Source: an uncultured Calditrichaceae bacterium
Lineage (GTDB): Bacteria > Calditrichota > Calditrichia > Calditrichales > Calditrichaceae
Assembly (NCBI GenBank): GCA_964424545.1
Contig: CAYRJN010000001.1
Location: forward strand, 1-59,421
DNA: 59,421 bases
Direction: 5' to 3'
Every line of letters starts with the position of its first letter. Position 1 is the first letter of the stretch. The notes below the pieces were generated by a model. It saw only the letters and a program-made list of their open reading frames with translations. It ran no database searches and was not told where the DNA came from. Both the position numbers and the translations under genes were made by a program. Positions 7,507-46,474 of this stretch are shown piece by piece.

Positions 7507-9948
7507 ATGCCCTTTGCAGAAGTTGTTTTTAATATTCCTGTTCCCCATGCTTATACGTATAAAATTCCCATGGAAATAAAAACGGTTGAGCCCGGCATGC
7601 GCGTACTGGCGCCGTTCGGAAAACGTACCATGAGCGGAGTGGTAGTCAAAATAACGGATAAGCCTAAGGTTACCAATCTTAAAAACCTCTTGGATGTTTT
7701 AGACGATAAACCGCTTATTTCGCAAAAAATGCTAAACCTTACACAGTGGATTTCCGAATACTATTTTGCAAGCTGGGGGCAGTCGGTACAATTAGCCTTG
7801 CCTCGCGGTATCGATAAGATAGAAACGGAATTAATACATTTAATCGATGATGATAATGAAGAGGAATTAAGTGAACGCCAAGGGGAACTGTATCAAATTA
7901 TCGCTATTAATCCCGGAAAGACAAAAGAATATTACAGGAAGAAATTCGGATACGGCACGTTTTATTATTTTCTAAACGTTTTGGAAGAAAAAGGGTTTAT
8001 TTGGCGTGAAAAAATGAAAAAAGACGCTCGTGTGCACGAGTTAAGGCGGAAATTTGTAACTATCCCGCCCGATTATGAAATACGTCGGGATAATTCCGTC
8101 GATTTTCGGAAATATTTAAAACGTCGTCCCGAAATAGATGAAGTATTTATAAGGAATTGCGGAAAATCCATCGCTTTGGCCGATTTTCGTAAATTAACTT
8201 CAATGGCTTCAAAAACATTGCATAAATTGGTCGATTATGATATTTGCAAAATTGAAGAGAAACGTGTGGAGCGTAAACCGCAGTATGAAAATAATGAAGT
8301 CAAAAAAGATATTGTTCTAACGGATGAACAAAAAACGGTTGTCGCGAAATTATTACAGGATGTAAAGGAAGAAAAATTTGCCGCGCGTTTACTGCATGGC
8401 GTAACGGGGAGCGGTAAAACGCAGGTATATATCGAAGCGCTTAAAGAAGTGATAAAACTTGGCAAAACGGGAATAATCTTAATTCCGGAAATCTCTTTAA
8501 CGCCGCAAACCGTGATGCGTTTCCAATCTGTTTTTTCCGATAAAGTAGTGGTGTTCCACAGTAAAATGTCCGACGGCGAACGCTTTGACGCTTGGAGAGC
8601 TTGCTATCGTCAGGATGTAAAAATTGTGGTCGGACCCCGATCTGCCCTTTTTATGCCCTTAAAAAATATCGGTTTGATTGTTGTTGATGAAGAGCATGAA
8701 GCTACGTATAAACAAAAAGAAAGCCAACTTAAATATCATGCCCGCGATGTAGCCGTTTATTGGGCGAAGAAAAATGAAGCTCTCGTATTGCTTGGTTCGG
8801 CCACGCCCAGTCTTGAGTCGTATTATAACGCTCGTCGCGGGAAATACGGATTGCTGGAAATTAGAAACCGCGTCGAAAATATCAAAATGCCCGATGTTCA
8901 TATTGTAGATATGAAATATAATCGTTTTAAAGTTAACGATAGGCGCAGCTTGTTTTCCGAACTGCTCGTAAATAAAATAAAAGATCGTCTAAAGAAAAAA
9001 GAACAGGTGATTCTATTGCAAAACCGCCGCGGGTATTCCTCTTTTATCCAATGTAAAGATTGCGGGTTTATTCCCGTCTGTCCCAATTGTGAAATTACCC
9101 TCACCTATCATTCTTATAATAATAAACTACAATGTCATCTTTGCGGGCATATCCAGCCGGCATTCCATTATTGTCCTCAATGTGACAGTAAAAATTTAAG
9201 TTATAAAGGCGACGGAACGCAGAAAATTCAGAGCGAGCTGATGGCCATATTCCCGGATGCGAAAATCATCCGTATGGATCAGGATACCACGCAGGGTAAA
9301 AATATGCATCATAAGCTGTTATCGGCTTTTGGGCGTAAAGAGGCGGATATTTTGCTGGGCACGCAAATGATCGCCAAAGGGCTCGATTTTGCCAATGTGA
9401 CGCTGGTGGGTGTTATCTCAACGGATGTGGGGCTGGCTATTCCCGATTACCGCGCGGCGGAACGCACTTTTCAACTGCTTACGCAGGTGTCGGGACGCTC
9501 CGGCCGTGGCAATTTGCATGGCGAGGTTGTTTTTCAATCCTATCAATATTCGCATTATGCCGTTCAGTTTGCCAAGGAGCAAGATTATATCGGCTTCTAT
9601 ATGGATGAAATGAAATTTCGACGGGATTTTAATTATCCGCCTTTCAGTCGCGTAATCGAAATAATGGTTTCGGCAGCGGAAATGAGCGGTGCCATTAACA
9701 CAGCGCGGCAATTGGCCGTTGGTATTAATAAAAGAGCAAAACAATATTGCAAAGTGATCGGACCGGCTCCGGCCGTTATTCCGAAAATGAAAAATCTGCA
9801 TCGCTGGCAACTGACCATAAAATTAAATCCCGGCAGCGATCCCAACGGGAAATACACCAAAGAAATATTAAGAAATTTTATAAAACCGCAGCTTTTTTCG
9901 GCAAATTCCAACGTGCATCTTTCGGTGGATGTTGATCCGATTTTTTAA
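7507..9948 (+). CDS. priA: primosomal protein N' (replication restart helicase PriA)
   Basis: MPFAEVVFNIPV...YTYKIP N-terminus, Walker A GVTGSGKT, DEEH box, and Cys-rich zinc module CKDCGFIPVCPNCE...CHLCGH...CPQCDS. The track start TTG 7423 lies inside a repeat motif, so ATG 7507 is preferred. Confidence 0.9.
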   Translation: MPFAEVVFNIPVPHAYTYKIPMEIKTVEPGMRVLAPFGKRTMSGVVVKITDKPKVTNLKNLLDVLDDKPLISQKMLNLTQWISEYYFASWGQSVQLALPRGIDKIETELIHLIDDDNEEELSERQGELYQIIAINPGKTKEYYRKKFGYGTFYYFLNVLEEKGFIWREKMKKDARVHELRRKFVTIPPDYEIRRDNSVDFRKYLKRRPEIDEVFIRNCGKSIALADFRKLTSMASKTLHKLVDYDICKIEEKRVERKPQYENNEVKKDIVLTDEQKTVVAKLLQDVKEEKFAARLLHGVTGSGKTQVYIEALKEVIKLGKTGIILIPEISLTPQTVMRFQSVFSDKVVVFHSKMSDGERFDAWRACYRQDVKIVVGPRSALFMPLKNIGLIVVDEEHEATYKQKESQLKYHARDVAVYWAKKNEALVLLGSATPSLESYYNARRGKYGLLEIRNRVENIKMPDVHIVDMKYNRFKVNDRRSLFSELLVNKIKDRLKKKEQVILLQNRRGYSSFIQCKDCGFIPVCPNCEITLTYHSYNNKLQCHLCGHIQPAFHYCPQCDSKNLSYKGDGTQKIQSELMAIFPDAKIIRMDQDTTQGKNMHHKLLSAFGRKEADILLGTQMIAKGLDFANVTLVGVISTDVGLAIPDYRAAERTFQLLTQVSGRSGRGNLHGEVVFQSYQYSHYAVQFAKEQDYIGFYMDEMKFRRDFNYPPFSRVIEIMVSAAEMSGAINTARQLAVGINKRAKQYCKVIGPAPAVIPKMKNLHRWQLTIKLNPGSDPNGKYTKEILRNFIKPQLFSANSNVHLSVDVDPIF

Positions 9949-10045
9949 TTAACCTCTTATAATACAAATATTTGCATAAAATAGTCTAAATATGTAATAT
10001 GTTCTATAACCAAATTATGTAAATCCTGTACAAAATAGTGTAAAA

Positions 10046-11296
10046 ATGAGCCGACATTTAGAGCAAAAGAAACAAAATGCCGCCCGGGTGAATCAGATAC
10101 TTTCTACGATTGAGAAACAGAACAGGTTGAAATCCATTTCCGCCGATTCTAAGTTTAAAGAGATCGTTGACAAGTATAACACGTTAATTGAACGTTATAA
10201 GCAATTAGAAAAAGTTTATGAGTTTCATCGCGGTATCATACAAAATATATCCAGTGGCATTTTAACGACGGATATGAAAGGGCGTATTACCTTTATGAAT
10301 CGTGCGGCGCTTGAATCGTTGGGGTATGATTATCAAAGCATTCAGGAAAAGGAGATCGGCGTTCTTTTCGTCAATCCTCAGGAGGGTAATAAAATTATCG
10401 AAGACGCCCTAAGACATGGCGTGGAGTATGAAAGCCGCGAGACGCATCTGCTGACTAAAGACAAACAAATTATCACCGTTGGATTCAGTATTACGCCATT
10501 AAGAATCCCGGGCAGCGATGAAAATTACGGTTTGATCTTTATTTTTCGCAATATTGATTATATAACCAGCTTAAGGCAGCAAATTGAACGTATGGATCGC
10601 CTCGCAACGCTGGGCGAGCTTTCGGCCGGCATTGCCCATGAAATTCGCAACCCGCTGGCTGGAATAAAAACGTCCGCTCAGGTATTGGAAGAGAGTTTCA
10701 GTCCGGGCGATTTTAGAAGTCAGTTAGTTTCGCGAATCGTAAAGGAGATTGACCGCAGCAACGAACTGCTTAAACGTTTTTTCCATTTTGCCAAACCGAG
10801 CAAGCCGAAACAGGACTTCTATAACATCGAAATGATCGTTGACGGCGTCTATCTTTTGATGGCAAACCGATTAAAAAAAAATAATATTAAATTTAAAACA
10901 AAATTTGCCGATAATACTCCTCAGGTATATGTCGATGAAAGCCAGATTGAACAGGTAATATTGAATCTTTTTTTGAATGCCATGGAAGCGATGAAAAACG
11001 GCGGAGAGCTGGTGATTGAGATAGGGGTCGAAGATAAAGTGAATCTTTCTCAGTATCAGAAGAGTGAAAAAGCTGTTTTTGTTCGAATTTGTGATAATGG
11101 AGCGGGAATACCGCAAGATAAACTTGAAAAAGTATTCAATCCTTTTTATACTACAAAAAGCGACGGCGTAGGGCTCGGTCTTTCGATCTCTTCAAGGCTG
11201 CTTGAGGAAAACGGGGGGAAAATAGTGCTGCATTCAAAAATTGGCGAGGGCAGCAAATTTATTGTTTATTTACCTGTTGTAGAAACCAAAGCTTAG
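10046..11296 (+). CDS. soluble sensor histidine kinase (coiled coil-PAS-HisKA-HATPase)
   Basis: PAS-like GILTTDMKGRITFMNRAA, H-box GIAHEIRNPLAGI, N-box LNLFLNAMEAM, G-boxes DNGAGIP and GVGLGLS. No TM segment is evident. Confidence 0.88.
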   Translation: MSRHLEQKKQNAARVNQILSTIEKQNRLKSISADSKFKEIVDKYNTLIERYKQLEKVYEFHRGIIQNISSGILTTDMKGRITFMNRAALESLGYDYQSIQEKEIGVLFVNPQEGNKIIEDALRHGVEYESRETHLLTKDKQIITVGFSITPLRIPGSDENYGLIFIFRNIDYITSLRQQIERMDRLATLGELSAGIAHEIRNPLAGIKTSAQVLEESFSPGDFRSQLVSRIVKEIDRSNELLKRFFHFAKPSKPKQDFYNIEMIVDGVYLLMANRLKKNNIKFKTKFADNTPQVYVDESQIEQVILNLFLNAMEAMKNGGELVIEIGVEDKVNLSQYQKSEKAVFVRICDNGAGIPQDKLEKVFNPFYTTKSDGVGLGLSISSRLLEENGGKIVLHSKIGEGSKFIVYLPVVETKA

Positions 11297-11304
11297 GATC
11301 AATC

Positions 11305-11670
11305 ATGGCAAAACGCTTATTAATAATCGATGACGAAGAGACCTTAACGTTCAGTTTATATCAAAGTTTTATTTTATCCGACGACGATTATGAAGTGCTT
11401 ACGGCTAACTCCGGCGAAGAGGCGCTGGATAAAATAAAAGAAAAACCCTTTGATTTGATTGTAACGGATATTTTTATGCCCGGTATCAGCGGGTTTGATA
11501 TCCTGAAAACGGTTAAGGATGAATATCCTGCAACAAAAGTAGTCGTTATGACAGCCTACGGAACCGATGAATACCGTGACGAGGCTATGGAATTTGGCGC
11601 TAAGTTTTATATTGAAAAACCGTTTGAAATTAAAGAATTTAAAAAAATCGTAATGGAAATATTGGGCTAA
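11305..11670 (+). CDS. stand-alone response-regulator receiver (CheY-like)
   Basis: LLIIDDEE, phospho-acceptor context DLIVTDIFMPG, VVVMTAYG, YIEKPF. 121 aa with no output domain. Confidence 0.88.
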   Translation: MAKRLLIIDDEETLTFSLYQSFILSDDDYEVLTANSGEEALDKIKEKPFDLIVTDIFMPGISGFDILKTVKDEYPATKVVVMTAYGTDEYRDEAMEFGAKFYIEKPFEIKEFKKIVMEILG

Positions 11671-11671
11671 T

Positions 11672-12316
11672 ATGGCTTTAGTTGGAGATTTAAAAGATTT
11701 AAGGCTTCCCAGTTTAATACAATTAAACTGTATGGAAAGAAATACCGCTAAGATGACCATCGAGTATGGTAATAAATACGGGTTTATCTATTTTGACGAC
11801 GGTCAGGTTGTTCATGCGGAATTTGATCCGGAAATGGGAGAAAAAGCCATTTTCCGTTTATTAACGCTTGAAGAGGGCAAATTTAAGGTGGAAAGTGGTA
11901 TTCGGGCGCCGATTAAATCCATAAACACAAGTTGGAATAATTTATTATTGGAAGGATTGCATAAAATCGACGCGTCCGTAGAAAGCGACGAGCAAAAATT
12001 TCGCTTTCTGTTGGAAAAGATATTTACCGTACGCGGCGTAAGTTCGGCCGAACTGTTTAATTTACAAGGTGATCGTGTCGCTTCAAGCGATAAAGAACAG
12101 CAAGATAACGGAGCCATTTACGCTTTGAATTTATTCGAGGCTAATATGGCGGGAGATCAATTATCTTTCGGTAATCCGAAATTTATCAGCATTGCCGTCG
12201 GAAATTTCAGATATGTTCTGATTCCTTACAAAGATGACTTTTTTTTGGTTGTTAAGTTGGATATAAAAGTTAAGCTCGATTTAGTCTTGGATATGTTAAA
12301 AAAAGCGATTAGTTGA
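11672..12316 (+). CDS. PATAN/DUF4388 domain protein with Roadblock-like C-terminal half
   Basis: The N-terminus GDLKDLRLPSLIQLNCMERNTAKMTI...GFIYFDDGQVVHAEF...GEKAIFRLLTLEEGKFKVE fits the DUF4388 pattern. The C-terminal VRGVSSAELFNLQGDRVAS...FFLVVKLD resembles Robl/LC7. Assignment is by eye only. Confidence 0.65.
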   Translation: MALVGDLKDLRLPSLIQLNCMERNTAKMTIEYGNKYGFIYFDDGQVVHAEFDPEMGEKAIFRLLTLEEGKFKVESGIRAPIKSINTSWNNLLLEGLHKIDASVESDEQKFRFLLEKIFTVRGVSSAELFNLQGDRVASSDKEQQDNGAIYALNLFEANMAGDQLSFGNPKFISIAVGNFRYVLIPYKDDFFLVVKLDIKVKLDLVLDMLKKAIS

Positions 12317-13302
12317 TGAAAACAGAAACGTTATTGGCTCCGGGGAAAACCCATCACAAGCTATTGGCGACCCATTATACTCAAACGTGGCCGTTAATAG
12401 AAGATTTAAAAGAATCTCGATTCTCAGGTTATTTAATGCTTGAATTCTGGGAGTACGAGGGATGTATCATATTCGATACGGGTAATATTATACAAGCTTT
12501 TCAGGTGGAAAAAAACGATGTTAAATCCGGTATAGACGCTTTATCGGGGATTTATCATAAGTTTAAAGAGAAAGATGGCACCATCAGCACATTTCAGATT
12601 GATTCGGAATTTGTTCCTTTTCAATTTGCAAGGTATCAAACAAAAGTGCTAAAGGAGTTTGAGAGTAAAAAAAGCGAGGAGCTGACAAATTTCATAAAGA
12701 ATATATCGAAAGAGATAGATTTCGGCTGCATCAATATCGTTTATGGAAAAGAGGAGGCATGGGCTACCGTTTTGTTAAATAACGGACAAATTGTTGGCAG
12801 CGCTTTAAAAAGCAAAGCCGGTAAAACCGTCTATGAAACCAATGAATTGAAACTTTATGAGAATATTATAAAACTTGCGGGAACCATTAAAACATCCTCC
12901 CAGCTGCTGGGATGCGACGCTATACAATCTTATCGGCACAGCAGTCAATATACCGAGTTCTTTGATCTGTTAAAAAAATCGGAAACAATCATTTCCGTTA
13001 ATAATTTTTTAAAGGATGTCCTAACTTCGGTAATTAATAAAAAAGAAATTGAAAATATTTTTAATACGGCGTGGGAAGAAAGCTGTAAAAAAAATAAAGC
13101 CAAAAACTTGAAAATATTATCCGATGGTATTATCGGCCTTGAACAGATAAATTCCAAGCAGTTTTATCGTATTATCAGAGACTTTTTAGTAAAGCTGCAA
13201 CCTAAGTTTGATAAAACGATTAAGGGAAAGCTTGCGATGAAAGATATGCTTTCCGCATTGAATAATCAGTACACGGGCAAATTAAAAGAATTGTTGATTT
13301 AG
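12313..13302 (+). CDS. hypothetical protein with two divergent PATAN-like segments
   Basis: FSGYLMLEFWEYEGCIIFDTGNIIQAF...GIDALSGI and GCINIVYGKEEAWATVLLNNGQIVGSAL echo the DUF4388 core. ATGA overlap with the upstream gene. Confidence 0.5.
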   Translation: MMKTETLLAPGKTHHKLLATHYTQTWPLIEDLKESRFSGYLMLEFWEYEGCIIFDTGNIIQAFQVEKNDVKSGIDALSGIYHKFKEKDGTISTFQIDSEFVPFQFARYQTKVLKEFESKKSEELTNFIKNISKEIDFGCINIVYGKEEAWATVLLNNGQIVGSALKSKAGKTVYETNELKLYENIIKLAGTIKTSSQLLGCDAIQSYRHSSQYTEFFDLLKKSETIISVNNFLKDVLTSVINKKEIENIFNTAWEESCKKNKAKNLKILSDGIIGLEQINSKQFYRIIRDFLVKLQPKFDKTIKGKLAMKDMLSALNNQYTGKLKELLI

Positions 13303-13336
13303 ATAAACAGTTGTGATTAACGGGATATGAAACGAT

Positions 13337-13774
13337 ATGGGCAATAAGTGGTTGGATGAAATTATTAATATAGAAGGCGTTGACGGTGCATTTATTATAT
13401 CGAATAGAGGGAATCTGATCGCCGATACGGCGTTGCCTTTTAACGATGCGCAGTTGTATGAACTTGGCGTACATATTTTACGCATAATCGGTAGTTTTCA
13501 TCTGAAGGAGAAAAATGTAAACGAGCTGGAACTCTATTGGGATAACTACTATATTATATGCAAAAATTCAGCCGATTTCACTCTGATTACTCTATGTAAA
13601 TCGTCAAAGGTACTGTCGTTGCTTCGTATAACATTAAATATTACTATTGCTAATTTGCTGGAAGATAAGAAATTTAATAAGTTGTTGAGCGGCGAAATTG
13701 CCGATAAAGCCTTTACCTTAAAAAGAGGCGAATTTGAAGAAATTGAAAAAAAAATGATTTCAAAATTGAAATAA
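13337..13774 (+). CDS. Roadblock/LC7 domain protein (MglB/MglC-like paralogue)
   Basis: LDEIINIEGVDGAFIISNRGNLIADTA ... TLITLCKSSKVLSLLRITLNITIANL fits the Robl_LC7 pattern. Confidence 0.65.
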   Translation: MGNKWLDEIINIEGVDGAFIISNRGNLIADTALPFNDAQLYELGVHILRIIGSFHLKEKNVNELELYWDNYYIICKNSADFTLITLCKSSKVLSLLRITLNITIANLLEDKKFNKLLSGEIADKAFTLKRGEFEEIEKKMISKLK

Positions 13775-13827
13775 TTCGATAAATATCATAAATTTAACCA
13801 ATAATTAAAAAAGAGTGGAAATAAATA

Positions 13828-14313
13828 TTGTCTGACAGCCGTTCTCAAGCACATATAAACAACAACCAAATTTATGTTTTGGCAAGAGATAAATCGCCGA
13901 CGGAAGTAAGTTTAAAATCGGCCGAATGGGCAATTATTACGCAGGTTGACGGAGAAAAGACCGTTGCGGATGTGGCCGCTGCTCTTGCTTTAAACACAGT
14001 GGAATCCTTTGTTTTGTTTAAAGGTTTGCTTGAAAAGAATCTTATAGAATTAAGCGGAAGTAAGACAGTCGAAGAGCAATATGTTCCGCAAAGTTTCTTC
14101 GAAGTTTTGAAAAAAGAGTTCATTGATGTCGTGGGGCCCGTTGCGCCTTTTATTATTAGCGATGTAATCGTAGAACATGAAATAAAAATGGATAGGCTGA
14201 AAAAAGAAATGATTCCGGAGTTAATCGAAGTGTTATCGGATGAAATTAGCGATGAAACAAAAAAAGTAAAGTTTCAGCAAAATATGTTAAATCACATGAG
14301 AGGTATTTCTTGA
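13828..14313 (+). CDS. hypothetical protein (possible winged-helix-like segment)
   Basis: ORF with TTG start inside the operon. WAIITQVDGEKTVADVAAALALNTVESFVLFKGLLEKNLIEL. No confident family assignment. Confidence 0.45.
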   Translation: MSDSRSQAHINNNQIYVLARDKSPTEVSLKSAEWAIITQVDGEKTVADVAAALALNTVESFVLFKGLLEKNLIELSGSKTVEEQYVPQSFFEVLKKEFIDVVGPVAPFIISDVIVEHEIKMDRLKKEMIPELIEVLSDEISDETKKVKFQQNMLNHMRGIS

Positions 14314-15050
14314 AATTTCTAAGTTTAAAATGGAAAATAAGCGGCATTCTGATTATTTCCAATCTTGTTATAGGCGTTTTGCTGGTTATTATTGTCAATA
14401 ATGTGGTTTCAAAGGGATTGCAGAAAGAATTGATTGAAAAAGGACGGGCAATTGCCGCAAATTTAGCGCAATATTCCGCCGAAGGTTTGCTTGAAGAAGA
14501 TAAAGCTGCCTTAAAAGAGATGGCCACGGGTGTAAAAAAATTCGAATCGATTGAATATGTTTTGATTCTAAACAGTGAAGGTGCTATATTAGCGGACACA
14601 TATAACGGACAGGTGCCTGCCGAACTAAGCGTGTTGGATAAAAGCAATAAAGAGGTTGTCCAAAGGATTGACATTGGTAACGGCAATATCGGAATATTTG
14701 ACATTGCTTATCCGGTTGAAGACGGGATGCTGGGAACGATTCGGGTCGGTATGAGAAAAAGCTATATTGACGCTACGGTGTTTCAAACAAATATCATTTT
14801 GATTTTGACCATTTTGGGCGTAACGATTGCGGGTATTATTATTGTGCTTATTTTGGCCAATAAAATCATTAAACCCATTTTGTATTTAACGGAGCGTGCG
14901 GATAAAATCAGTCAGGGAGAATTGGAAGAAAAAGTTAAGGTAAATACCAATGATGAGATTGCTCAGCTTGGGGATGCTTTGGAAAGACTGCGTGAAAGCG
15001 TTAAATTAGCGTTAGACAGGTTAAAAAAACATCAAACCTTACGTATATAA
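14310..15050 (+). CDS. membrane sensor-HAMP protein lacking an output domain
   Basis: TM1 (ILIISNLVIGVLLVIIV), about 125-aa extracytoplasmic domain, TM2 (IILILTILGVTIAGIIIVLIL), then HAMP (IIKPILYLTERADKISQGELEEKVKVNTNDEIAQLGDALERLRESV), after which the protein ends. TTGA overlap with the upstream gene. Confidence 0.7.
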   Translation: MKFLSLKWKISGILIISNLVIGVLLVIIVNNVVSKGLQKELIEKGRAIAANLAQYSAEGLLEEDKAALKEMATGVKKFESIEYVLILNSEGAILADTYNGQVPAELSVLDKSNKEVVQRIDIGNGNIGIFDIAYPVEDGMLGTIRVGMRKSYIDATVFQTNIILILTILGVTIAGIIIVLILANKIIKPILYLTERADKISQGELEEKVKVNTNDEIAQLGDALERLRESVKLALDRLKKHQTLRI

Positions 15051-15069
15051 TTAAAGTGAGGAATATATA

Positions 15070-15579
15070 ATGGTACAAACAAAGAAATTGAAGGATGGTA
15101 GCCGGCAAGTAATCTTAACCGGTAAACAGTATGACGTAATTACAAAAGTATTATCGGAATTGGCAACCAAAACAAAGGCTTCAGCCATATTATTTGCCGA
15201 TATGAGCGGCCAGTTAATAAGTCAGCGCGGTAGCACAGAAGGTATGAACACTACCGTTTTATCGGCTCTCGCGGCCAGTGATTTTGCGGCAACTTCCGAG
15301 ATGGCTAAGCTCGTTGGCGAAGAAGCTAAGTTTAAACTGCTTTTCCATGAAGGGGAAAAGAGAAATGTATATCTTTCTAATGTGGGGGATAGCTTTTTTC
15401 TCGTTGTGGTATTTGATGTCAGCGTTACGCTCGGTTTAATCCGAATCTATACTAAAAAAGCGATTGAAGACCTAAATGCAGCTCTTGAAGAGTCCGGCGA
15501 AGAGAGCGATGAAGGATCAATGATTGATTCCGACTTCAGCACGCTTTTGGGCAATGCTTTGGACGATACATTTAAATAA
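15070..15579 (+). CDS. mglB: MglB-type Roadblock/LC7 GTPase-activating protein
   Basis: Collinear by eye with M. xanthus MglB as recalled: ILFADMSGQLISQRGS, DFAATSEMAKLVGEE, FHEGEKRNVYL, LVVVFDVSVTLGLIRIYTKKA, and an acidic C-terminal tail. Lies directly upstream of mglA. Confidence 0.85.
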   Translation: MVQTKKLKDGSRQVILTGKQYDVITKVLSELATKTKASAILFADMSGQLISQRGSTEGMNTTVLSALAASDFAATSEMAKLVGEEAKFKLLFHEGEKRNVYLSNVGDSFFLVVVFDVSVTLGLIRIYTKKAIEDLNAALEESGEESDEGSMIDSDFSTLLGNALDDTFK

Positions 15580-15623
15580 TAGTTTTACCATAGAACAATA
15601 AAAAATTTAGACAGAGGATAAAA

Positions 15624-16208
15624 ATGTTTATTAATTGGGCGTTACAGGAAATTAATTTAAAAATCGTTTATTACGGACCGGGAATGAGCGGTAAAACCAC
15701 GAATCTTGAACATATCCATCAAAAACTGGATCCTTCGTTAACCGGCGATCTTGTTTCCCTTAAAACCAAAGAAGATCGTACGATATTCTTCGATTTTATG
15801 CAGATAGAGGTCGGCCGTATAAAAGGTAAAAAACCGAAATTTAATCTTTATACCGTTCCGGGTCAGGTTTATTATGCTTCAAGTCGTAAAGTTATCTTAA
15901 ACGGCGTAGACGGCATTGTGTTCGTAGCCGATTCGCAGCCGCACAGGATGGAAGCAAATATCGAAACCCTCCTGGATCTTGAAGGGAATTTAAAACAAGA
16001 CGGCCACTCGCTTGATAATTTTCCTTGGGTTATTCAGTATAATAAAAGAGATTTACCCGGCGCCGAATCGGTTGATGTTTTACAAAAACGTCTGAATTTC
16101 TTTAATGTACCGAATTTTGAAGCTGTTGCCGTTAAGGGCGAAGGCGTTTTTGATACGCTGAAAGCGGTGATTAATTTAGTCGTTCAGAATGTCCAAAGCC
16201 AGTTATAA
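15624..16208 (+). CDS. mglA: MglA-type Ras-like small GTPase
   Basis: EINLKIVYYGPGMSGKTTNL (P-loop), EDRTIFFDF (switch I Arg-Thr), LYTVPGQVYY (switch II Gln), VDGIVFVADSQ, QYNKRDL, GVFDTLKAV. Near full-length resemblance to M. xanthus MglA as recalled. Confidence 0.92.
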   Translation: MFINWALQEINLKIVYYGPGMSGKTTNLEHIHQKLDPSLTGDLVSLKTKEDRTIFFDFMQIEVGRIKGKKPKFNLYTVPGQVYYASSRKVILNGVDGIVFVADSQPHRMEANIETLLDLEGNLKQDGHSLDNFPWVIQYNKRDLPGAESVDVLQKRLNFFNVPNFEAVAVKGEGVFDTLKAVINLVVQNVQSQL

Positions 16209-16235
16209 TATAAAAAATTTAACAGCAGTTATATA

Positions 16236-16267
16236 AACCTTCTCAGTTTTTTGGGAAGGTTTTTTTG
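16236..16267 (+). terminator. rho-independent terminator after mglA
   Basis: accttc(tc)-loop-(gg)gaaggt followed by tttttt. Confidence 0.75.
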
Positions 16268-16283
16268 TTGAAAGGGTGCATAC

Positions 16284-17615
16284 TTGCAAACCAATGATTT
16301 GAAAAATCATGAAGAGGCTAAAAAATTACGAAAAGCAAAACGCAAGGAGCTTTTGTCCTGGATTCTTTATGATTTTGCCAATACGGCTTTCAGCGTTATT
16401 GTTGTAACGGTTGTCTTCTCTGTCTATTTTAAACAATATATCGTGGCTGATTTTAAAGTTGATATTTTTGGTTTGACGCGCAATCCAGGCGATTTTTTAT
16501 GGGGCTTGGGAGGGGCGATATCTATGCTTTTCGTGGCTTTGACTTCGCCGGTTATGGGCGCAATTGCCGATTACGGCAAGAGTAAGAAAAAATTCGTATT
16601 TATTTATTCTTCATTATGTATTATCATGACCCTTCTGCTGTATTTTACAGGGCCGGGAATGATATGGCGGGCTTTAATCCTTTTTGTTCTGGCCGATATC
16701 GGTTTTGAAGGGGCGATTGTTTTTTATAACGGATTCTTGCCTCAGATTTCCACGAATGATAATATCGGTAAAATTTCCGGTTACGGATTTGCATTTGGGT
16801 ATGTGGGCTCTCTAATCTCTTTAATGATTGCGCTTCCCTATGCAAATATGGCATTTGCGCAGGGCAGTTTGCAAATGATGCGGCCGACCTTTATTTGGGC
16901 CGGTCTGTTTTTTCTCGTGTTTTCTATTCCGTTTTATCTTTTTGTGACGGAAAAAAAGAACGCTCCTTCCCTGCAAAGACAATCCGTAAACTATATAAAA
17001 GAAGGTTATGGGCGTCTTAAAAAAACAATTCGAAAGATAAAAGAATTTCCTCAAATCGTTAAATTTTTAATTGCTTATTTTATTTATATTGACGGCGTTA
17101 ATACGGTGATTTATTTTGGCGGTATATTTGCCAAAGATACCTTGGGTTTCACTATGACCGAAGTGATTACCTTTTTTGCTATTGTACAATTTACGGCTAT
17201 TTCCGGCGCCTATATTTTCGGTTTTCTTACTGATAAGCTGGGCGTAAAAAAGACGATAAATATAACGCTTTTTCTATGGATGGGCGTGACCGTGGGGGCA
17301 TTCCTTTCTTATAATGTGTGGTCTTTTTATTTGGTGGGACTTACTGCAGGGATTGCAATGGGCTCTACCCAAGCTGCCAGCAGGGCAATGATGGGAAGAT
17401 TAATACCCGAAGGAATGGAAGCCGAATTTTTCGGGTTTTATGCTTTAACCGGTAAGTTTTCATCTATTTTGGGTCCTTTGTTATTTGGCATAACTTCCAC
17501 GGTTAGCGCCAGCCAGCGCATTGGCGTACTGTCTATTTTAATGTTTTTTATTATCGGCTATTTTTTATTTCAACGCGTGGATGATAAAATTACATATAAA
17601 AAAGTTGTAATATAG
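16284..17615 (+). CDS. MFS transporter, UMF1/Atg22-like family
   Basis: WILYDFANTAFSVIVVTVVFSVYF is typical of Atg22-like MFS proteins. About 12 hydrophobic segments. TTG start is uncertain. Confidence 0.75.
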   Translation: MQTNDLKNHEEAKKLRKAKRKELLSWILYDFANTAFSVIVVTVVFSVYFKQYIVADFKVDIFGLTRNPGDFLWGLGGAISMLFVALTSPVMGAIADYGKSKKKFVFIYSSLCIIMTLLLYFTGPGMIWRALILFVLADIGFEGAIVFYNGFLPQISTNDNIGKISGYGFAFGYVGSLISLMIALPYANMAFAQGSLQMMRPTFIWAGLFFLVFSIPFYLFVTEKKNAPSLQRQSVNYIKEGYGRLKKTIRKIKEFPQIVKFLIAYFIYIDGVNTVIYFGGIFAKDTLGFTMTEVITFFAIVQFTAISGAYIFGFLTDKLGVKKTINITLFLWMGVTVGAFLSYNVWSFYLVGLTAGIAMGSTQAASRAMMGRLIPEGMEAEFFGFYALTGKFSSILGPLLFGITSTVSASQRIGVLSILMFFIIGYFLFQRVDDKITYKKVVI

Positions 17616-20450: not shown

Positions 20451-21065
20451 ATGACAGAACTTTTCTTGAATGGCGGTCCATTCATGTGGCCAATCTTAGG
20501 TCTGTTAATAATTGGTATTGGATTTTCATTGGAACGTCTGTGGAGTTTAACGCGCGCATCCGTGAATACCAGAAAGTTTTTGGCAAAATTGCATACGGCT
20601 TTAAACGAGGGCGGCGTTGAAGCTGCCGCTGCCGAATGCGAAAAGACACCGGGTCCGGTTGCTTCTATCCTTCATGCCGGTTTGGCTCGCGCCGATAAAG
20701 GCATTGATCACGTAAAAGAAGCGATTACTTCCGCAGGTGCTATTGAAATGGCTTTCCTTGAAAAAGGTATGATCGTTCTACAATCTGTTATTGTATTAGC
20801 GCCGATGTTGGGATTTACCGGGACGGTTTCCGGTATGGTTTCCGCTTTTGACGCTATTAAAGTTAAAAATGATATTTCGCCCGCTATTGTAGCCGGCGGT
20901 ATTTCCGAAGCTTTATTGACAACGCTTTTCGGACTTGTTGTAGCTATGATAATTCAAATTTTCTTTAATTATTTTACTTCAAGAATAGATAAATTAATTA
21001 TCGACATGGAAGAGAGCTCTGTCAATTTAGTTGATGCGTTAAGCGAATTGGAAGAAAAAAAATAA
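20451..21065 (+). CDS. exbB: MotA/TolQ/ExbB proton-channel protein
   Basis: GGPFMWPILGLLIIGIGFSLER, LAPMLGFTGTVSGM, ISEALLTTLFGLVVA. Confidence 0.88.
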   Translation: MTELFLNGGPFMWPILGLLIIGIGFSLERLWSLTRASVNTRKFLAKLHTALNEGGVEAAAAECEKTPGPVASILHAGLARADKGIDHVKEAITSAGAIEMAFLEKGMIVLQSVIVLAPMLGFTGTVSGMVSAFDAIKVKNDISPAIVAGGISEALLTTLFGLVVAMIIQIFFNYFTSRIDKLIIDMEESSVNLVDALSELEEKK

Positions 21066-21088
21066 ACAAGCACAATAGAGGATAAACT

Positions 21089-21496
21089 ATGTTACTCGGT
21101 AAAAAACGAGAACGTGATGTAGAAATACCTTCAGCCTCTTTATCTGATATTGTTTTTCTTCTGTTGATCTTTTTTCTTGTGACGACGGCCATTGATACGG
21201 AAAAAGGTTTGGATTTGGTGTTGCCGCCGCCCGGCGATATTGAAATAAAGATACCGAAGAAAAATATAACCAATTTATTGGTGAATGCATCAGGGCAGGT
21301 TCTTTTGGATAATGAGCTTGTTGATATTAGAGATATTTCCAGAATCATAAAAGATAAAATATATGAAAATAATTTGCTTGTGGTATCTCTAAAGACCGAT
21401 AAAGAGACAAAATTTGAAGATTATATAAGAGTATTAGATCAATTGAAGAAAGCCGAGGCTAAGCGTATTTCAATCGCTGAGCCTGAGGAAGATTAA
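21089..21496 (+). CDS. exbD: ExbD/TolR biopolymer transport protein (copy 1)
   Basis: IPSASLSDIVFLLLIFFLVTT and size of 135 aa. Confidence 0.85.
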   Translation: MLLGKKRERDVEIPSASLSDIVFLLLIFFLVTTAIDTEKGLDLVLPPPGDIEIKIPKKNITNLLVNASGQVLLDNELVDIRDISRIIKDKIYENNLLVVSLKTDKETKFEDYIRVLDQLKKAEAKRISIAEPEED

Positions 21497-21511
21497 TATG
21501 GAGGCCGCAAG

Positions 21512-21928
21512 ATGAAGTTTCAAAAGAAGACAAAGGTGAATGCGACCATCCCGACCGCTTCGATGCCGGATATTATCTTTATGTTGCTGATTTTCTTTAT
21601 GGTTGCAACGGTTTTTAAACAGTACAGCGGCTTAAAAGTAAAGGTTCCCGCAGCGTCAATGATTCAAAAGATTCCAGGATCTAAACGGCACGTGGTTACA
21701 ATTTGGGTTAATAAAGAAAATCAGGTTATTTGTGATGATGTGGTTATTAAAAAAATCTCCGATCTTAGAAATGTTGTGTATCAGAAAAGAGTTGCCGACC
21801 CGCAGATAATCTTAGCGCTTAAAATTGATAAAAATGTACAAATGGGTTTTGTTAATAAGGTACATCAGGAGTTGAGAAAAGCCAGCGCTTTAAAAGTAAA
21901 CTATAATGCAAGACCGGGAGAGTTATAA
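21512..21928 (+). CDS. exbD: ExbD/TolR biopolymer transport protein (copy 2)
   Basis: IPTASMPDIIFMLLIFFMVAT and size of 138 aa. Confidence 0.85.
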   Translation: MKFQKKTKVNATIPTASMPDIIFMLLIFFMVATVFKQYSGLKVKVPAASMIQKIPGSKRHVVTIWVNKENQVICDDVVIKKISDLRNVVYQKRVADPQIILALKIDKNVQMGFVNKVHQELRKASALKVNYNARPGEL

Positions 21929-22557
21929 TGGAAACAATTAAAAAAAATCCCGAAGTAGATTTAAAATTAAAATATAAAAATGTTCTCAATGCTGGAATGG
22001 CGCTTTCTCTACTGATAATGATTTTTACATTTTATTCTTTTCAGACCTTTGAGAGCGGCGTTACTCTGCCTGATAATCCCGATATCACTATTGAAACCAT
22101 TGAAATTCCGCAAACGCAACAGTTACAAAAACCGCCGCCCCCCTCAAGGCCTTCTATCCCGGTGGAGAGTGAGGATGAAGATCTTTTGGACGATGTAACG
22201 ATTGAAGAAACCGAAGTCACCTTGGATGAAGTAAAAGATTTACCGCCCCCTCCTCCGCCTGAAGAGGATGAAGTATATGAATTCTTTGCCGTGTCGGAAA
22301 AACCGGTAATCACGCATAAGGAAGTTCCTAAATATCCTGAGCTGGCTAAAAAAGCGGGAATACAGGGAAATGTTGTTATTACGGTTACAATCGATAAAAA
22401 AGGGAATGTTGAAAACGCCAAAGTCTTTAAATCGATACCGATGTTAGATGACGCTGCTTTAAATGCCGCTAAAAAATGTAAATTTAAACCGGCTAAACAA
22501 CGAGATAAATTTGTAAAAGTAAAAATGAACATTCCTTTTAATTTTAAGTTAAAATAA
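21928..22557 (+). CDS. TonB-family energy transducer
   Basis: N-terminal TM, Pro-rich linker (KPPPPSRPSIP, LPPPPPPEE), and TonB_C-like YPELAKKAGIQGNVVITVTIDKKGNV...AALNAAKKCKFKPA. TAATG overlap with exbD copy 2. Confidence 0.85.
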   Translation: METIKKNPEVDLKLKYKNVLNAGMALSLLIMIFTFYSFQTFESGVTLPDNPDITIETIEIPQTQQLQKPPPPSRPSIPVESEDEDLLDDVTIEETEVTLDEVKDLPPPPPPEEDEVYEFFAVSEKPVITHKEVPKYPELAKKAGIQGNVVITVTIDKKGNVENAKVFKSIPMLDDAALNAAKKCKFKPAKQRDKFVKVKMNIPFNFKLK

Positions 22558-26683: not shown

Positions 26684-27211
26684 TCAGAATAAACGGCGTT
26701 TTATATATTTATCAAGCGTTGAATAGAAGAAAAATATTAATACGACAAAAAGCGCAATGAGCAGTTCTTTATTATATTTTTTACTATAATATGATATATT
26801 GCGTAAAGGCATGTTAAGATAATAATTAATGTTTTCCCACGAAATATTATTTTTAACCCCTTTTTCCGATATAATTTTCGGTTTATCAATTTTTTGCGAA
26901 TAGATTTTGTGGGTGTTTTGGGAAAAAAGAAATAGAGCAACTATAAAAAGTAAAATTAATGATGGTACAAATAACGAATCAAGAAAGAAGTTAATTTGCA
27001 GCGGGTTTAATTTCTCTTTTATTTTTTCGAATAGATCATAATCTATTGACAAAGGTTTAATATCTTTCAGCGAATTGTGCGCGGATGTTTGCTCGTTTAA
27101 TAACCATTTACATCTTTGACAGCGCTGTAAATGTATTAACTTATCTCTATCAAATGAACTTTTGCCATCGGATAAGTAAGTTTCAAAATCGTCGATTGTC
27201 CAGTGCTTCAT
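26684..27211 (-). CDS. membrane anti-sigma factor (zf-HC2-like)
   Basis: HLQRCQRCKWL near the N-terminus, hydrophobic segments, and a 4-nt overlap with the ECF sigma gene. Confidence 0.65.
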   Translation of the reverse strand: MKHWTIDDFETYLSDGKSSFDRDKLIHLQRCQRCKWLLNEQTSAHNSLKDIKPLSIDYDLFEKIKEKLNPLQINFFLDSLFVPSLILLFIVALFLFSQNTHKIYSQKIDKPKIISEKGVKNNISWENINYYLNMPLRNISYYSKKYNKELLIALFVVLIFFFYSTLDKYIKRRLF

Positions 27212-27768
27212 AATATCTCCTCCTTTCGATACTGTTCGAGAAGAATGGCTCTTAATTTTTTGCGTCCACGATGTAGATGAGTCTTAACCGTATTTGCCGG
27301 AATTTTTAATATAGTGCTAATCTCGTCGATATTAAACTGATTCAAATAAAACAATGAAATGCATAATCCTTGCATTATAGAAAGTTGATCGATAGCTCGC
27401 TCTAAAATTGCAACGCTGTCAAAATCGGGGTTGCTTTCCAAATTAATGGTTTGGAAATATTCAATATTGTTAATATCAAAATCATCCGTGTAATGTGCGG
27501 CGTCTTTTTTATTTGAGGCATTTAGCGCCGTGCGATAGACAATGGTATATTGCCATGTTGTAAATTTACTACGGGATTGATATGCGTTAATATTCTGATA
27601 AACTTTAACAAATACATCCTGAGTTACTTCTTCCGCTTTTTCCCTGTTTTTTACGATACGATAAGCTATCGTGAAGACATAGTCCTGATGCAATTCCATC
27701 AAAGATCGTAAGGCTTCCGTATCGCCTTTTTGCAGACGTTTTATTATGTTGCTTTCATTACTCATCAT
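27208..27768 (-). CDS. ECF-subfamily RNA polymerase sigma-70 factor
   Basis: Region 2 YVFTIAYRIVKNREKAEEVTQDVFVKVY and region 4 EISTILKIPANTVKTHLHRGRKKL. Confidence 0.88.
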   Translation of the reverse strand: MMSNESNIIKRLQKGDTEALRSLMELHQDYVFTIAYRIVKNREKAEEVTQDVFVKVYQNINAYQSRSKFTTWQYTIVYRTALNASNKKDAAHYTDDFDINNIEYFQTINLESNPDFDSVAILERAIDQLSIMQGLCISLFYLNQFNIDEISTILKIPANTVKTHLHRGRKKLRAILLEQYRKEEIL

Positions 27769-37729: not shown

Positions 37730-39064
37730 TTAATCCTTTAAAAAACGATAGCTTTTGTAAAAGTAATTTAGTAATAGAATAAAACCGATAAGCGGGCCCA
37801 CCAGACGGTAATTAATTGACATAATGACGATAAAAAGTAAAGTGAAATGATAAGCGTATCCCGCTGCTCGCGGAGAATCATAGTAGAGTATTTGAAAATT
37901 CAATTTTACGGCAATAGTGAGAACCGCAAAGCCGAATAACAGAGCGCCAAAAGAAAATACGATTTGTGGAGATGCTTGCGCTATAAGCAAAAACAAGCTT
38001 TGAATAAGAGCCACAAAAATGATATAGATAAATTCCGCTAAAAACTTGGCTGTCCATACTATACTGTATTTAAGGGGTAGTGTGTGAAAATACCAAGCGG
38101 GATCAGTGGAAACATATTTATCGCTAAAGTGATTACCGTAATGAAGCCAGGCGGTAATTAAAGAAGCCGCTAATATCCAATTTTCAGGATTGTGCAACGA
38201 TCTTAAAATAACGACAGTTAGAAAAAGGATGTAAATTGTCGTCGCGAATAGTTTGACTCTTTTATATCCCGGATTTCTCCATAAACTTAATAGCTCTTTA
38301 TTAAACAAAATCCGCAGGCTATTGTTGAAGATTCTTGAAAATAAGCTAATTCGATTTTTTATTTTTGTATTCCCGACGGGTCTGTTCTGATTAAAAGGGA
38401 GAATTATATCAATGTACAGGCAGCTGTTTTTTTTAAATTTAAAATAGGTGAGAAACAACAACCCGCTGAAAAAAATAAAATTTACGGGTAGTGTTGATTT
38501 GAATATAAATAGATTAACAATAACAAAAAGAATATAAATAAATAGATAAATTATCGTTCTTTTGTAGATTAAAGATTTCTCGCTGCTAACATTCAAATCG
38601 AATAAACCTGTAAAAAAAATAGTAACGGCCGCGAAAATGATAATAAAAAGCGTATATATTCCCGACAGTGCATCAAGGAGGATTAATGCGCTTAAAAGGG
38701 GTGAAAAAAAAAGGGGAATGATTAAAAGATATTTAAAAAAATAATAAGCGCCGACCGTTATTACATCTTTGTTTTCGAGAGGTAGAGAGTAAAAGGGCAA
38801 CAGCGTTTTTTGACGTGGAATTAGTCGTCTAAATATAAAAGGGGCGGCCATTAGGAACAGTATAATATGGATGGAAGAAACGACAGAGCGTGTCTGAATA
38901 AGATGCAATAATTCAAAATTCTTCCATTGCAGTATTAAATAATATAATCGCTCTGTTAGATAAGCGTAAAGGGTGATTCCGATAAAAGAAATCTCAAGTT
39001 TGCTTACGATTGAGAGCGACTGTATAATATGAAGCGGTTGCCGCAGTAGTAATTTTGTCAGCAT
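37730..39064 (-). CDS. polytopic membrane protein, putative orphan permease partner of the ABC ATPase
   Basis: 444 aa, very hydrophobic with many predicted TM segments. Its stop is 3 nt upstream of the ATPase start. No recognisable family motif. Confidence 0.55.
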   Translation of the reverse strand: MLTKLLLRQPLHIIQSLSIVSKLEISFIGITLYAYLTERLYYLILQWKNFELLHLIQTRSVVSSIHIILFLMAAPFIFRRLIPRQKTLLPFYSLPLENKDVITVGAYYFFKYLLIIPLFFSPLLSALILLDALSGIYTLFIIIFAAVTIFFTGLFDLNVSSEKSLIYKRTIIYLFIYILFVIVNLFIFKSTLPVNFIFFSGLLFLTYFKFKKNSCLYIDIILPFNQNRPVGNTKIKNRISLFSRIFNNSLRILFNKELLSLWRNPGYKRVKLFATTIYILFLTVVILRSLHNPENWILAASLITAWLHYGNHFSDKYVSTDPAWYFHTLPLKYSIVWTAKFLAEFIYIIFVALIQSLFLLIAQASPQIVFSFGALLFGFAVLTIAVKLNFQILYYDSPRAAGYAYHFTLLFIVIMSINYRLVGPLIGFILLLNYFYKSYRFLKD

Positions 39065-44875: not shown

Positions 44876-44878
44876 ACA

Positions 44879-45586: not shown

Positions 45587-45687
45587 CGACTAAAGGAAAA
45601 GTTAGGTTTTACTCTTGCAAACGATGAAATTAAGAACATAGCTTTGCAAAGTGATTAATAAAAAAGTGCGGGTAGAATCGTCAAAGT

Positions 45688-46419: not shown

Positions 46420-46474
46420 AACGGTTTGCGGCAACGCTTCGTCCTTTTATAAGGAAAATTTTTTGTGAATTATT

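Follow-up and report, generated by a model that had tools for sequence, protein, structure and literature searches.

In a stretch of DNA of 59,421 nucleotides from an uncultured Calditrichaceae bacterium (contig CAYRJN010000001.1, analysed at its full length and hereafter called the window), nine genes at positions 10046-16208 of the forward strand are best explained as a single transcription unit for an extended module built around the MglA/MglB polarity switch. The genes code, in this order, for a PAS histidine kinase, a stand-alone receiver (REC), a PATAN-Roadblock protein, a protein with two PATAN-like modules, a second, probable Roadblock protein, a DUF8082 winged-helix protein, a membrane sensor ending in a HAMP domain, MglB and MglA. 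REC, PATAN-Roadblock, Roadblock, DUF8082, sensor-HAMP, MglB and MglA form an invariant core; the PAS histidine kinase and the double-PATAN protein are frequent but dispensable additions. We regard the identity and the conservation of the cassette as well established. For its function, we propose a receptor- and phosphorylation-controlled MglA polarity switch that is coupled by PATAN domains to a pilus motor, probably that of type IV pili, a reading to which we assign a probability of about 0.5.

The original prediction, which was made from the sequence of the window without database searches, described nine co-directional open reading frames (ORFs) with gaps of −4 to +53 nt. The ORF listing returned exactly these nine ORFs at the coordinates first given, and the spacings measured from the first to the last gene are 8, 1, −4, 34, 53, −4, 19 and 44 nt. 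The 1-nt gap between the receiver and PATAN-Roadblock genes (11670/11672) and the TTGA overlap between the DUF8082 and sensor-HAMP genes (14310-14313) were given correctly. An ATGA overlap claimed at 12313-12316 does not exist, as bases 12313-12319 read TTGATGA. The stop codon TGA of the PATAN-Roadblock gene occupies 12314-12316, so that the following double-PATAN gene starts either at TTG 12313 (4-nt overlap) or at ATG 12316 (1-nt overlap); public gene callers place the start at ATG 12316. The terminator expected behind the operon was found at 16235-16272 (forward strand). It consists of a 12-bp stem with four GC pairs and a 4-nt loop (16235-16262), followed by the T-run TTTTTGTT, and is the top-ranking terminator-like site within 9500-17000. 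A scan for sigma-70 promoters was uninformative, with 26 sites versus 22 expected.

Phmmer searches against the PDB bear out that the last two genes are mglB and mglA. The 194-aa product of the last gene (15624..16208) matches the MglA proteins of Myxococcus xanthus (9e-70) and Thermus thermophilus (2e-61) and is 58% identical to the former over 188 aa. Its P-loop (GPGMSGKT) and its G4 motif (NKRD) are intact. Group-1 MglA proteins are recognised by an Arg beside the Thr in G2 and by TVPGQ in G3 (Wuichet and Sogaard-Andersen 2015, PMC4316618). In the protein of the window, switch I (KEDRTIFFDF) has an Arg next to the conserved Thr of G2, and G3 (LYTVPGQ) contains TVPGQ rather than GTPGQ or DxxGQ. 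Judged by these motifs, the protein is a small Ras-like GTPase of MglA Group 1 with predicted GTP binding and predicted MglB-stimulated hydrolysis. Its paired MglB is a predicted Roadblock-type GTPase-activating protein (GAP) of 169 aa (15070..15579) with an acidic C-terminal tail or helix, whose gene ends 44 nt upstream of mglA. It matches the MglB structures of M. xanthus (4e-23) and T. thermophilus (5e-15), is 34% identical to M. xanthus MglB in an alignment that extends into the C-terminal tail, and exceeds the gathering score of Robl_LC7 (3e-11). With 81.9 bits it does not reach the cutoff of 200 of NF052242, the NCBIfam equivalog of Thermus-type MglB; since this model is a narrow equivalog, the miss is not counted against membership in the MglB family. 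All MglA and MglB peptide motifs quoted earlier were found in the translations.

The conservation of the cassette was assessed from an MglA scan with one genome per species, which yielded 80 loci with MglA proteins of 84-95% identity. Most of these loci are named Calditrichota or Caldithrix, the rest Bacteroidota, Caldisericaceae, Deltaproteobacteria or unclassified. Cassette genes were counted by tblastn and ORF mapping in the 55 species-level loci whose sequence extends 6.2 kb or more upstream of mglA. The REC, PATAN-Roadblock, MglB and MglA genes are present in all 55 Calditrichota loci, the sensor-HAMP gene in 54 and the DUF8082 gene in 53. The position of the second Roadblock gene is filled in every locus, by assigned ORFs in 43 cases and by divergent ORFs of 145-159 aa in the other 12. 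The PAS kinase occurs in 45 loci and the double-PATAN protein in 16-19, corresponding to absence from about one fifth and about two thirds of the loci, respectively. The commonest layout comprises eight genes and lacks the double-PATAN gene (19 loci), the nine-gene layout of the window is found in 11 loci, and a layout of seven genes, without kinase and double-PATAN gene, in eight. The nine ORFs predicted for the window are thus real, but nine genes do not make up a fixed unit: this definition is rejected, because two of them are dispensable across the 55 loci.

In the subgroup with seven genes, which consists of metagenome-assembled genomes (MAGs) labelled Bacteroidota, genes for a GNAT protein, a CAAX protease and a cargo protein of the type IX secretion system (T9SS) lie upstream of REC, and the counterpart of the DUF8082 protein is a 266-aa PATAN-DUF8082 fusion. 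The core is kept next to these unrelated upstream genes and hence survives a change of flanks. In the group of locus L049, the PAS kinase is absent or replaced. Thirteen loci (L007, L046, L049, L053, L056, L057, L062-L064, L066, L068, L075 and L080) belong to MAGs that were deposited as Caldisericaceae, Deltaproteobacteria or Bacteroidota. Their MglA proteins are 84-92% identical to Calditrichota MglA, and they carry the same cassette wherever the upstream flank suffices. The taxonomy under which these MAGs were deposited is probably mistaken or out of date.

Word-indexed homologue searches with the DUF8082 and PATAN-Roadblock proteins retrieved Calditrichota only. An exhaustive phmmer search with the PATAN-Roadblock protein against 1.84 billion cluster representatives gave 2831 matches reaching other phyla, among them proteins of roughly 358 aa with a receiver N-terminal to PATAN-Roadblock. 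Four cassettes outside the Calditrichota were found in this way of comparison. Two of them (L088 and L090) are assigned to the Anaerolineales (Chloroflexota) by the names of proteins that share their 90% clusters, and encode REC(-PATAN-Roadblock), a double-PATAN-like protein (337-338 aa), a second Roadblock-like protein, PATAN-DUF8082, a transmembrane (TM)-HAMP protein, MglB, MglA, an extra Roadblock and a HEAT protein. REC is a separate 143-aa ORF in L090, where no gene for PATAN-Roadblock was called. In L085, a metagenomic locus of unassigned lineage, a HisKA_3 kinase gene precedes the same series, in which the sensor is TarH-HAMP, and the cluster goes on with a second MglA, PilZ and another two Roadblocks. 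The fourth cassette, L091, is likewise unassigned and encodes REC, PATAN-Roadblock, a double-PATAN-like protein (432 aa), an 80-aa ORF, a second Roadblock-like protein, PATAN-DUF8082, dCache-HAMP, MglB and MglA. Each gene of the four cassettes has a significant blastp match to its counterpart in the window. The MglA of L091 is 74% identical to that of the window, those of L085 and of the Anaerolineales 53-59%, and the accessory proteins are 25-39% identical to their counterparts, values indicating orthologous cassettes that diverged long ago rather than recent transfers. The order of the seven-gene core is kept across Calditrichota, Anaerolineales and the two further lineages, and the genes flanking the cassette differ in the other lineages. 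The double-PATAN gene occurs in each of the four outgroup cassettes and in two distinct clades of the Calditrichota; it is therefore ancestral, with repeated losses. The original prediction had taken the cassette for a feature of an FCB-like (Fibrobacterota-Chlorobiota-Bacteroidota) organism; as the Anaerolineales carry one too, it is not specific to this group.

The upstream genes were thus found to be syntenic with mglBA in related genomes, and chance adjacency is rejected based on the synteny in 55/55 Calditrichota loci and in other phyla. Gene order might nevertheless be inherited within one phylum without any functional coupling. Within the Calditrichota, priA upstream and a major facilitator superfamily (MFS) transporter gene downstream are also often syntenic, so that some of the local order is just inherited. 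The core cassette, however, persists when both flanks change, it occurs in Anaerolineales and two other lineages with MglA proteins that are just 53-74% identical, its spacing is operon-like, and its members are fused to each other (REC-PATAN-Roadblock, PATAN-DUF8082). We consider mere inherited order hardly credible.

Some of these loci encode further Roadblock proteins or GTPases. Past mglA, L085 (13886-16681) carries genes for a 243-aa HATPase_c protein, the second MglA, which is Group-1-like, 190 aa long and 59% identical to the MglA of the window, PilZ and the two additional Roadblocks; the PilZ gene hints at a link to cyclic di-GMP (c-di-GMP) or pili. In the Anaerolineales loci, mglA is followed by genes for a 131-aa Roadblock and a HEAT-repeat protein of roughly 265 aa (9557-9952 and 10433-11233 in L088, 11881-12276 and 12662-13456 in L090), which are not part of the Calditrichota operon. 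A different neighbourhood was observed in a Candidatus Eisenbacteria MAG (L087, 8001-11101) and in a MAG labelled Chloroflexota (L092, 8001-11098). There, the gene of a 218-aa PATAN-Roadblock protein is followed by one for a 435-436-aa protein with an N-terminus resembling the second Roadblock protein and by a third for a 305-aa protein, in which an N-terminal extension of roughly 125 residues precedes a Ras/Roc-like GTPase domain with 21% identity to MglA. PATAN-Roadblock proteins thus pair with non-MglA small GTPases too.

The PATAN-Roadblock protein (11672..12316, 214 aa) had been described as a PATAN protein with a Roadblock-like C-terminal half, and Pfam, AlphaFold2 (AF2) and Foldseek agree on this. 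Its match to DUF4388 (PatA_N, PF14332; E 8.5e-21) scores 74.7 bits against a gathering score of 25, and Robl_LC7 is matched at 0.003. The AF2 model (mean pLDDT 88.7) shows an N-terminal beta-rich and a C-terminal alpha-beta-alpha domain. The latter matches Asgard Roadblocks and M. xanthus MglB in Foldseek with E values of 4e-7 to 3e-6 and superposes on 9jue, 7f8m and 6hjm with target TM-scores of 0.75-0.83 and root-mean-square deviations (rmsd) of 1.6-2.3 Å. Superposition was best on Asgard Roadblocks, and LAMTOR subunits were matched too. The model confirms a protein with a PATAN domain and a predicted true Roadblock fold.

The double-PATAN protein (12316..13302; 328 aa, or 329 aa from TTG 12313) is an accessory protein with two PATAN-like modules and a variable helical C-terminal region. 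In the window, it matches DUF4388 at 2e-4 with 21.7 bits, which is under the gathering score of 25; among its orthologues, 17 of 19 match the family (best 3.6e-7). Hhalign aligned its N-terminal and middle segments with the PATAN domain of the PATAN-Roadblock protein (P 7e-5 and 3.5e-4, respectively), and the PATAN core motif occurs twice in the family alignment. These results support the two PATAN-like segments noted earlier. The C-terminal third is variable; hhalign gave no signal for it as a DUF8082-like region, a possibility that is rejected, and the profile of the protein retrieved no match from the PDB. For the second Roadblock protein (13337..13774, 145 aa, with a C-terminal helical extension), Robl_LC7 was matched at 0.0045 and by just five of 31 orthologues. 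Its family profile retrieved the Thorarchaeota Roadblock 7f8m from the PDB at 1.7e-4, and hhalign aligned it in register with the MglB family over 102 columns (79% probability, P 1.5e-5); MglC was not retrieved by the profile from the PDB at E ≤ 10. The profile match and the hhalign result support the earlier assignment, and the protein is probably a Roadblock.

The 161-aa protein encoded at 13828..14313, termed unknown in the original prediction, is assigned instead to DUF8082 (PF26309), which is fused to PATAN in other lineages. The precomputed Pfam annotation gives this family for a protein identical to it and for all 22 homologues. Its AF2 model (mean pLDDT 84.9) shows an N-terminal winged helix followed by a C-terminal region of four helices. 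Sequence and structure searches returned only generic winged-helix matches, including a weak one of MarR type, plus a sub-threshold match to DUF742 (E 0.013, 15.7 bits versus a cutoff of 27), which was obtained with 4/19 family members. True membership in DUF742, the family of CvnC, is rejected at this score, leaving an analogy only, and a relationship to Roadblock or PATAN is rejected because hhalign gave no signal. DUF8082 is joined to PATAN in the L049 group, the Anaerolineales, L085 and L091. As this fusion is found in every lineage but the main Calditrichota group, DUF8082 and PATAN are likely to act together.

The top Foldseek matches of the DUF8082 model in the PDB were the winged-helix parts of NPRL2/NPRL3 (Npr2/Npr3) in GATOR1/SEA complexes. 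With E values of 3e-3 to 1e-2 and an rmsd of about 15 Å these matches are weak, and homology was rejected in favour of a generic winged-helix similarity. NPRL2 and NPRL3 are GAP subunits for Rag GTPases that sit on Roadblock platforms, and the match is curious in a Roadblock/GTPase setting, though probably generic.

The first two genes encode, as predicted earlier and found with Pfam, a soluble PAS-HisKA-HATPase kinase and a stand-alone receiver. The kinase (10046..11296, 416 aa) is composed of an N-terminal coiled region, PAS (PAS_9, 6e-12), HisKA (1e-13) and HATPase_c (1e-22). No hydrophobic segment was noted in it, in line with a cytoplasmic location, and its top NCBIfam match is AtoS-like but under the cutoff. 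The receiver (11305..11670, 121 aa; Response_reg 1e-27) has the canonical DD, D54, T and K residues, as read from its translation. The REC and PATAN-Roadblock genes are 1 nt apart in the window and are fused in the Anaerolineales (L088) and L085, which makes it most likely that the receiver controls the PATAN-Roadblock adaptor directly.

The sensor-HAMP protein (14310..15050, 246 aa) has the composition TM1-sCache_3_2-TM2-HAMP. According to hydropathy, TM1 (about residues 10-32) and TM2 (about 160-184) flank the periplasmic sCache_3_2 domain. Both HAMP (2e-11) and sCache_3_2 (2.5e-8) score over their gathering thresholds, and the protein ends 15 residues past HAMP, which agrees with the earlier description of a sensor with two TM segments and without an output domain. 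Its periplasmic domain varies across lineages (sCache, TarH four-helix bundle, dCache), while the HAMP helix AS2 and the residues that follow are nearly invariant across phyla, with the consensus ERxRxSLKxAxxRL. The exchange of the sensor domain with retention of AS2 and the tail points to a genuine receptor, whose conserved cytoplasmic tip would be the output surface. In every cassette compared, the HAMP gene lies directly upstream of mglB.

The original prediction had connected these proteins in a linear relay from sensor-HAMP through kinase/receiver and a PATAN/Roadblock platform to MglA. In such a relay, the sensor-HAMP protein would supply the sensing part of a split sensor kinase and control autophosphorylation of the soluble PAS kinase; the kinase would phosphorylate the receiver, which would act on MglA by way of the platform. 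The two proteins are complementary, the kinase lacking a membrane segment and the HAMP protein an output, and they share an operon in the window and in 45/55 Calditrichota loci. However, the HAMP gene is kept in 54/55 loci and the kinase gone from about 10 Calditrichota loci, in which GNAT, CAAX-protease or T9SS-cargo genes take its upstream place. The kinase is also missing in L088, L090 and L091, and L085 has an unrelated HisKA_3 kinase instead. Furthermore, the upstream block begins with the kinase gene and ends with the HAMP gene, which always lies right before mglB. Retention of the HAMP gene where the PAS kinase is missing or replaced argues against an obligatory relay from HAMP to kinase and favours two parallel inputs. 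The linear wiring is not supported as written, and we consider it unlikely.

We therefore return to the proposed polarity switch with two inputs. In Myxococcus, MglA-GTP is found at the leading pole, MglB acts as its GAP, and MglC, RomR and FrzX/Z shape the cycle (PMC9481161, PMC4719450, PMC3441718). As in Myxococcus and Thermus, MglA-GTP would mark one pole and MglB would stimulate GTP hydrolysis. The Roadblock half of the PATAN-Roadblock protein and the second Roadblock protein may assemble, either together or in combination with MglB, into a Roadblock platform. This platform would tune or localise GAP or guanine nucleotide exchange factor (GEF) activity in a way comparable to MglC and RomY in Myxococcus. 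In PatA-type regulators of Synechocystis, PATAN binds both PilB1 and PilC and suffices to reverse pilus-driven phototaxis (bioRxiv 10.1101/2021.06.11.447907); the PATAN domains of the cassette might likewise anchor the platform at PilB/PilC, the machinery that extends type IV pili. Type IV pilus genes form a cluster in Caldithrix abyssi, which also has flagellar genes and lacks gliding machinery of the Bacteroidetes type (PMC5317091). Phosphorylation of the receiver could switch the PATAN-Roadblock adaptor, a role suggested by their union in one polypeptide in other lineages, and the phosphate would come from the adjacent PAS kinase where present. In parallel to the kinase, the sensor-HAMP protein may pass an extracytoplasmic signal straight to the cytoplasmic complex via the conserved HAMP AS2. 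In actinobacterial conservons, CvnB is a GAP and CvnC (DUF742) a likely GEF (PMC13343842). By analogy with CvnC/MfpC, the DUF8082 winged helix is our leading candidate for the subunit that exchanges nucleotides or acts as an adaptor. Such a module would be expected to make the polarity or the reversal of pilus-driven surface movement depend on a signal.

Several points weigh against this proposal. Every functional link in it is inferred from context. No pilus gene is present in the window or adjoins the cassette in any locus examined, and C. abyssi is also flagellated, with a motility reported as 'tumbling', which makes the target machinery uncertain (PMC5317091). Lineages without the PAS kinase leave the kinase of the receiver unaccounted for. 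The likeness of the DUF8082 protein to DUF742 is weak, as judged by its E value and the few matching members, and its Foldseek matches are generic winged helices. The second Roadblock protein is graded no higher than probable.

Conservon-like G-protein signalling would direct the cassette to gene expression or development instead of motility, with DUF8082 possibly binding DNA. The parts indeed parallel CvnA (TM-HAMP), CvnB (Roadblock), CvnC (DUF742) and CvnD (MglA-like GTPase), the weak DUF742 and MarR-type matches of the DUF8082 protein fit, and no motility genes are adjacent. Yet the GTPase belongs to Group 1 (RT, TVPGQ) and not to Group 2 (GTPGQ, without the Arg), and it is 58% identical to a motility regulator, M. 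xanthus MglA. In addition, the HAMP protein lacks a kinase-like ATPase, the DUF8082 protein stays below the DUF742 gathering score, and the cassette has up to four PATAN modules, the sole experimentally known partner of PATAN being the pilus motor (bioRxiv 10.1101/2021.06.11.447907). This reading is thus improbable.

A broader interpretation, which we put forward tentatively and hold to be doubtful, is that the cassette represents an ancient, self-contained bacterial G-protein platform of several phyla. A HAMP-only receptor would act on a heteromeric Roadblock scaffold (PATAN-Roadblock protein, second Roadblock protein and MglB), DUF8082 would be the long-sought exchange factor for Group-1 MglA outside myxobacteria, and PATAN would couple the state of the GTPase directly to the type IV pilus motor. 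If so, the cassette would correspond in prokaryotes to the logic of receptor, Ragulator and Rag, and would retain in a single operon the ancestral form of the polarity network that is dispersed in Myxococcus.

Outside the operon, the window encodes a number of unrelated functions. Between the operon and an ExbB-ExbD-ExbD-TonB_C gene set at 20451-22557 (forward strand) lie genes for an MFS/ATG22-like transporter, a Peptidase_MA_2 protein and a CtpB-like PDZ/S41 protease. A 2814-aa protein encoded at 28318-36765 on the reverse strand combines FG-GAP, He_PIG/Ig and beta-helix domains with a C-terminal Por_Secre_tail, a T9SS sorting domain that supports the earlier statement that the organism bears this system. 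Directly downstream on the same strand are an ECF sigma factor gene (27208-27768) and an ORF of 174 aa without a Pfam match (26684-27211). A glycogen metabolism cluster at 40562-52841 (forward strand) encodes an amylo-alpha-1,6-glucosidase of 1421-1437 aa (GDE_N/GDE_C plus an alpha-amylase domain), a short-chain dehydrogenase, a small CBM48 protein, a glucan phosphorylase, a glycogen synthase and a branching enzyme. A database look-up of the protein encoded at 37730-39064 returned no record. Proteins identical to those of the window are present in assembly GCA_054022255.1. Those of the left part are found on contig JBPMRS010000071.1 (59,735 nt), which would end near 29.8 kb of the window, and the protein encoded at 49252-50775 lies on a different contig, JBPMRS010000139.1. 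With its proteins split over two contigs of that assembly, the window is either more contiguous or spans a join. The operon sits well inside the part matched by JBPMRS010000071.1.

The claim that the architecture is uncharacterised holds in so far as no paper describing the full cassette was found in the literature searched. Nor did these searches turn up the fixed multi-gene order, a Roadblock half in the PATAN protein, the DUF8082 protein, a HAMP receptor without output, a fusion of REC to PATAN-Roadblock or the distribution across phyla. Searches combining Caldithrix with MglA or DUF4388 with Roadblock, and a search for DUF8082, returned nothing, and PATAN with Roadblock returned irrelevant papers only. 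The PATAN-mglBA neighbourhood itself was already reported (PMC4316618, text and Table S2). PATAN genes were listed there next to Group-1 mglA/mglB in Chloroherpeton, Chloroflexus, Roseiflexus, Herpetosiphon and Aquificae, in a genome set that does not include Caldithrix. As cited in PMC4316618, this adjacency was first noted by Makarova et al. (2006), and a Synechocystis preprint repeats it (bioRxiv 10.1101/2021.06.11.447907). Group-1 neighbourhoods are said to 'vary widely', conserved operons being reserved for the actinobacterial conservon of Group 2 (PMC4316618). Judged by the literature searched, what is new in this extended, operon-encoded Group-1 MglA module is the full cassette; what was known is the PATAN-mglBA adjacency.

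MglA/MglB is the model for bacterial front-rear polarity, and its regulators are known almost wholly from Myxococcus, where the partners are scattered and partly lineage-specific. At least two phyla encode the full partner list in one operon, and gene fusions indicate which pieces act together. This provides testable hypotheses on the routes by which signals from the environment and from phosphorylation arrive at a bacterial small GTPase, on the role of PATAN outside cyanobacteria, on the purpose of DUF8082 and on HAMP signalling without a fused output domain. It also links motility-type Group-1 MglA systems to conservon-type operons of actinobacteria and to archaeal and eukaryotic Roadblock platforms. 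The recurrence in another phylum points to a widespread way of steering surface motility.

Compared to known systems, the cassette shares with the cyanobacterial PatA-type regulators (PixG, PixE, LsiR and PatA) the combination of PATAN with a receiver. Those regulators control type IV pilus polarity in a phosphorylation-dependent manner through the binding of PATAN to PilB1/PilC (bioRxiv 10.1101/2021.06.11.447907). Their order is PATAN-REC, whereas REC is a separate gene here and part of REC-PATAN-Roadblock elsewhere, and this difference in domain order rules out a PatA-type regulator. Moreover, PatA-type regulators belong to chemosensory (Tax) systems, while PATAN is joined here to Roadblock and co-encoded with a small GTPase. 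In eukaryotic and Asgard Roadblock platforms (Ragulator-Rag), several Roadblock-fold subunits are co-encoded with a small GTPase as well. Just the fold is in common; longin and Rag-type GTPase domains are absent from the cassette, for which a heteromeric assembly is a proposal. Earlier surveys of PATAN-mglBA recorded only the adjacency of 'PATAN', without the fixed order REC, PATAN-Roadblock, Roadblock, (PATAN-)DUF8082, sensor-HAMP, MglB, MglA; they describe neither the DUF8082 protein nor a HAMP sensor without output, nor a Roadblock half in the PATAN protein.

Conservons (AGPS; CvnA-D, Mfp) resemble the cassette in that they are operons in which a HAMP sensor in the membrane and a Roadblock GAP are combined with a small winged-helix-like protein and a GTPase of the MglA family, and serve as G-protein signalling systems of prokaryotes. 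Their GTPase belongs to Group 2, with GTPGQ and a Thr in place of the Arg finger, unlike the RT and TVPGQ of the window. CvnA bears its own kinase-like ATPase, whereas the sensor of the window stops shortly after HAMP and the kinase is a separate soluble protein. CvnC is a DUF742 protein, a family approached by the DUF8082 protein just at the E value given above. Conservons also lack PATAN and a receiver and are confined to Actinomycetota. The GTPase group, the DUF742 score and the missing fused kinase rule out the cassette as a conservon.

The MglA-MglB pair of Myxococcus and Thermus agrees with that of the window in a Group-1 MglA with intrinsic Arg finger and TVPGQ, an MglB with C-terminal tail, and the order mglB-mglA. 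Additional Roadblock paralogues (MglC) and receiver proteins (RomR, FrzX, FrzZ) act as regulators in Myxococcus (PMC9481161, PMC4719450, PMC3441718), a further likeness. No counterpart of RomX or RomY was identified at the locus, where no search aimed at either was made. The receiver of the window, as read from its translation, is a bare REC of 121 aa and lacks the Pro-rich and Glu-rich tail that RomR has in addition to REC, and the PATAN-Roadblock and DUF8082 proteins have no characterised equivalent in Myxococcus. Input is provided here by a two-component pair and a HAMP receptor, and there by the Frz chemosensory array. Finally, the partners of MglA are scattered over the genome in Myxococcus, whereas those of the Calditrichota are encoded in one operon.

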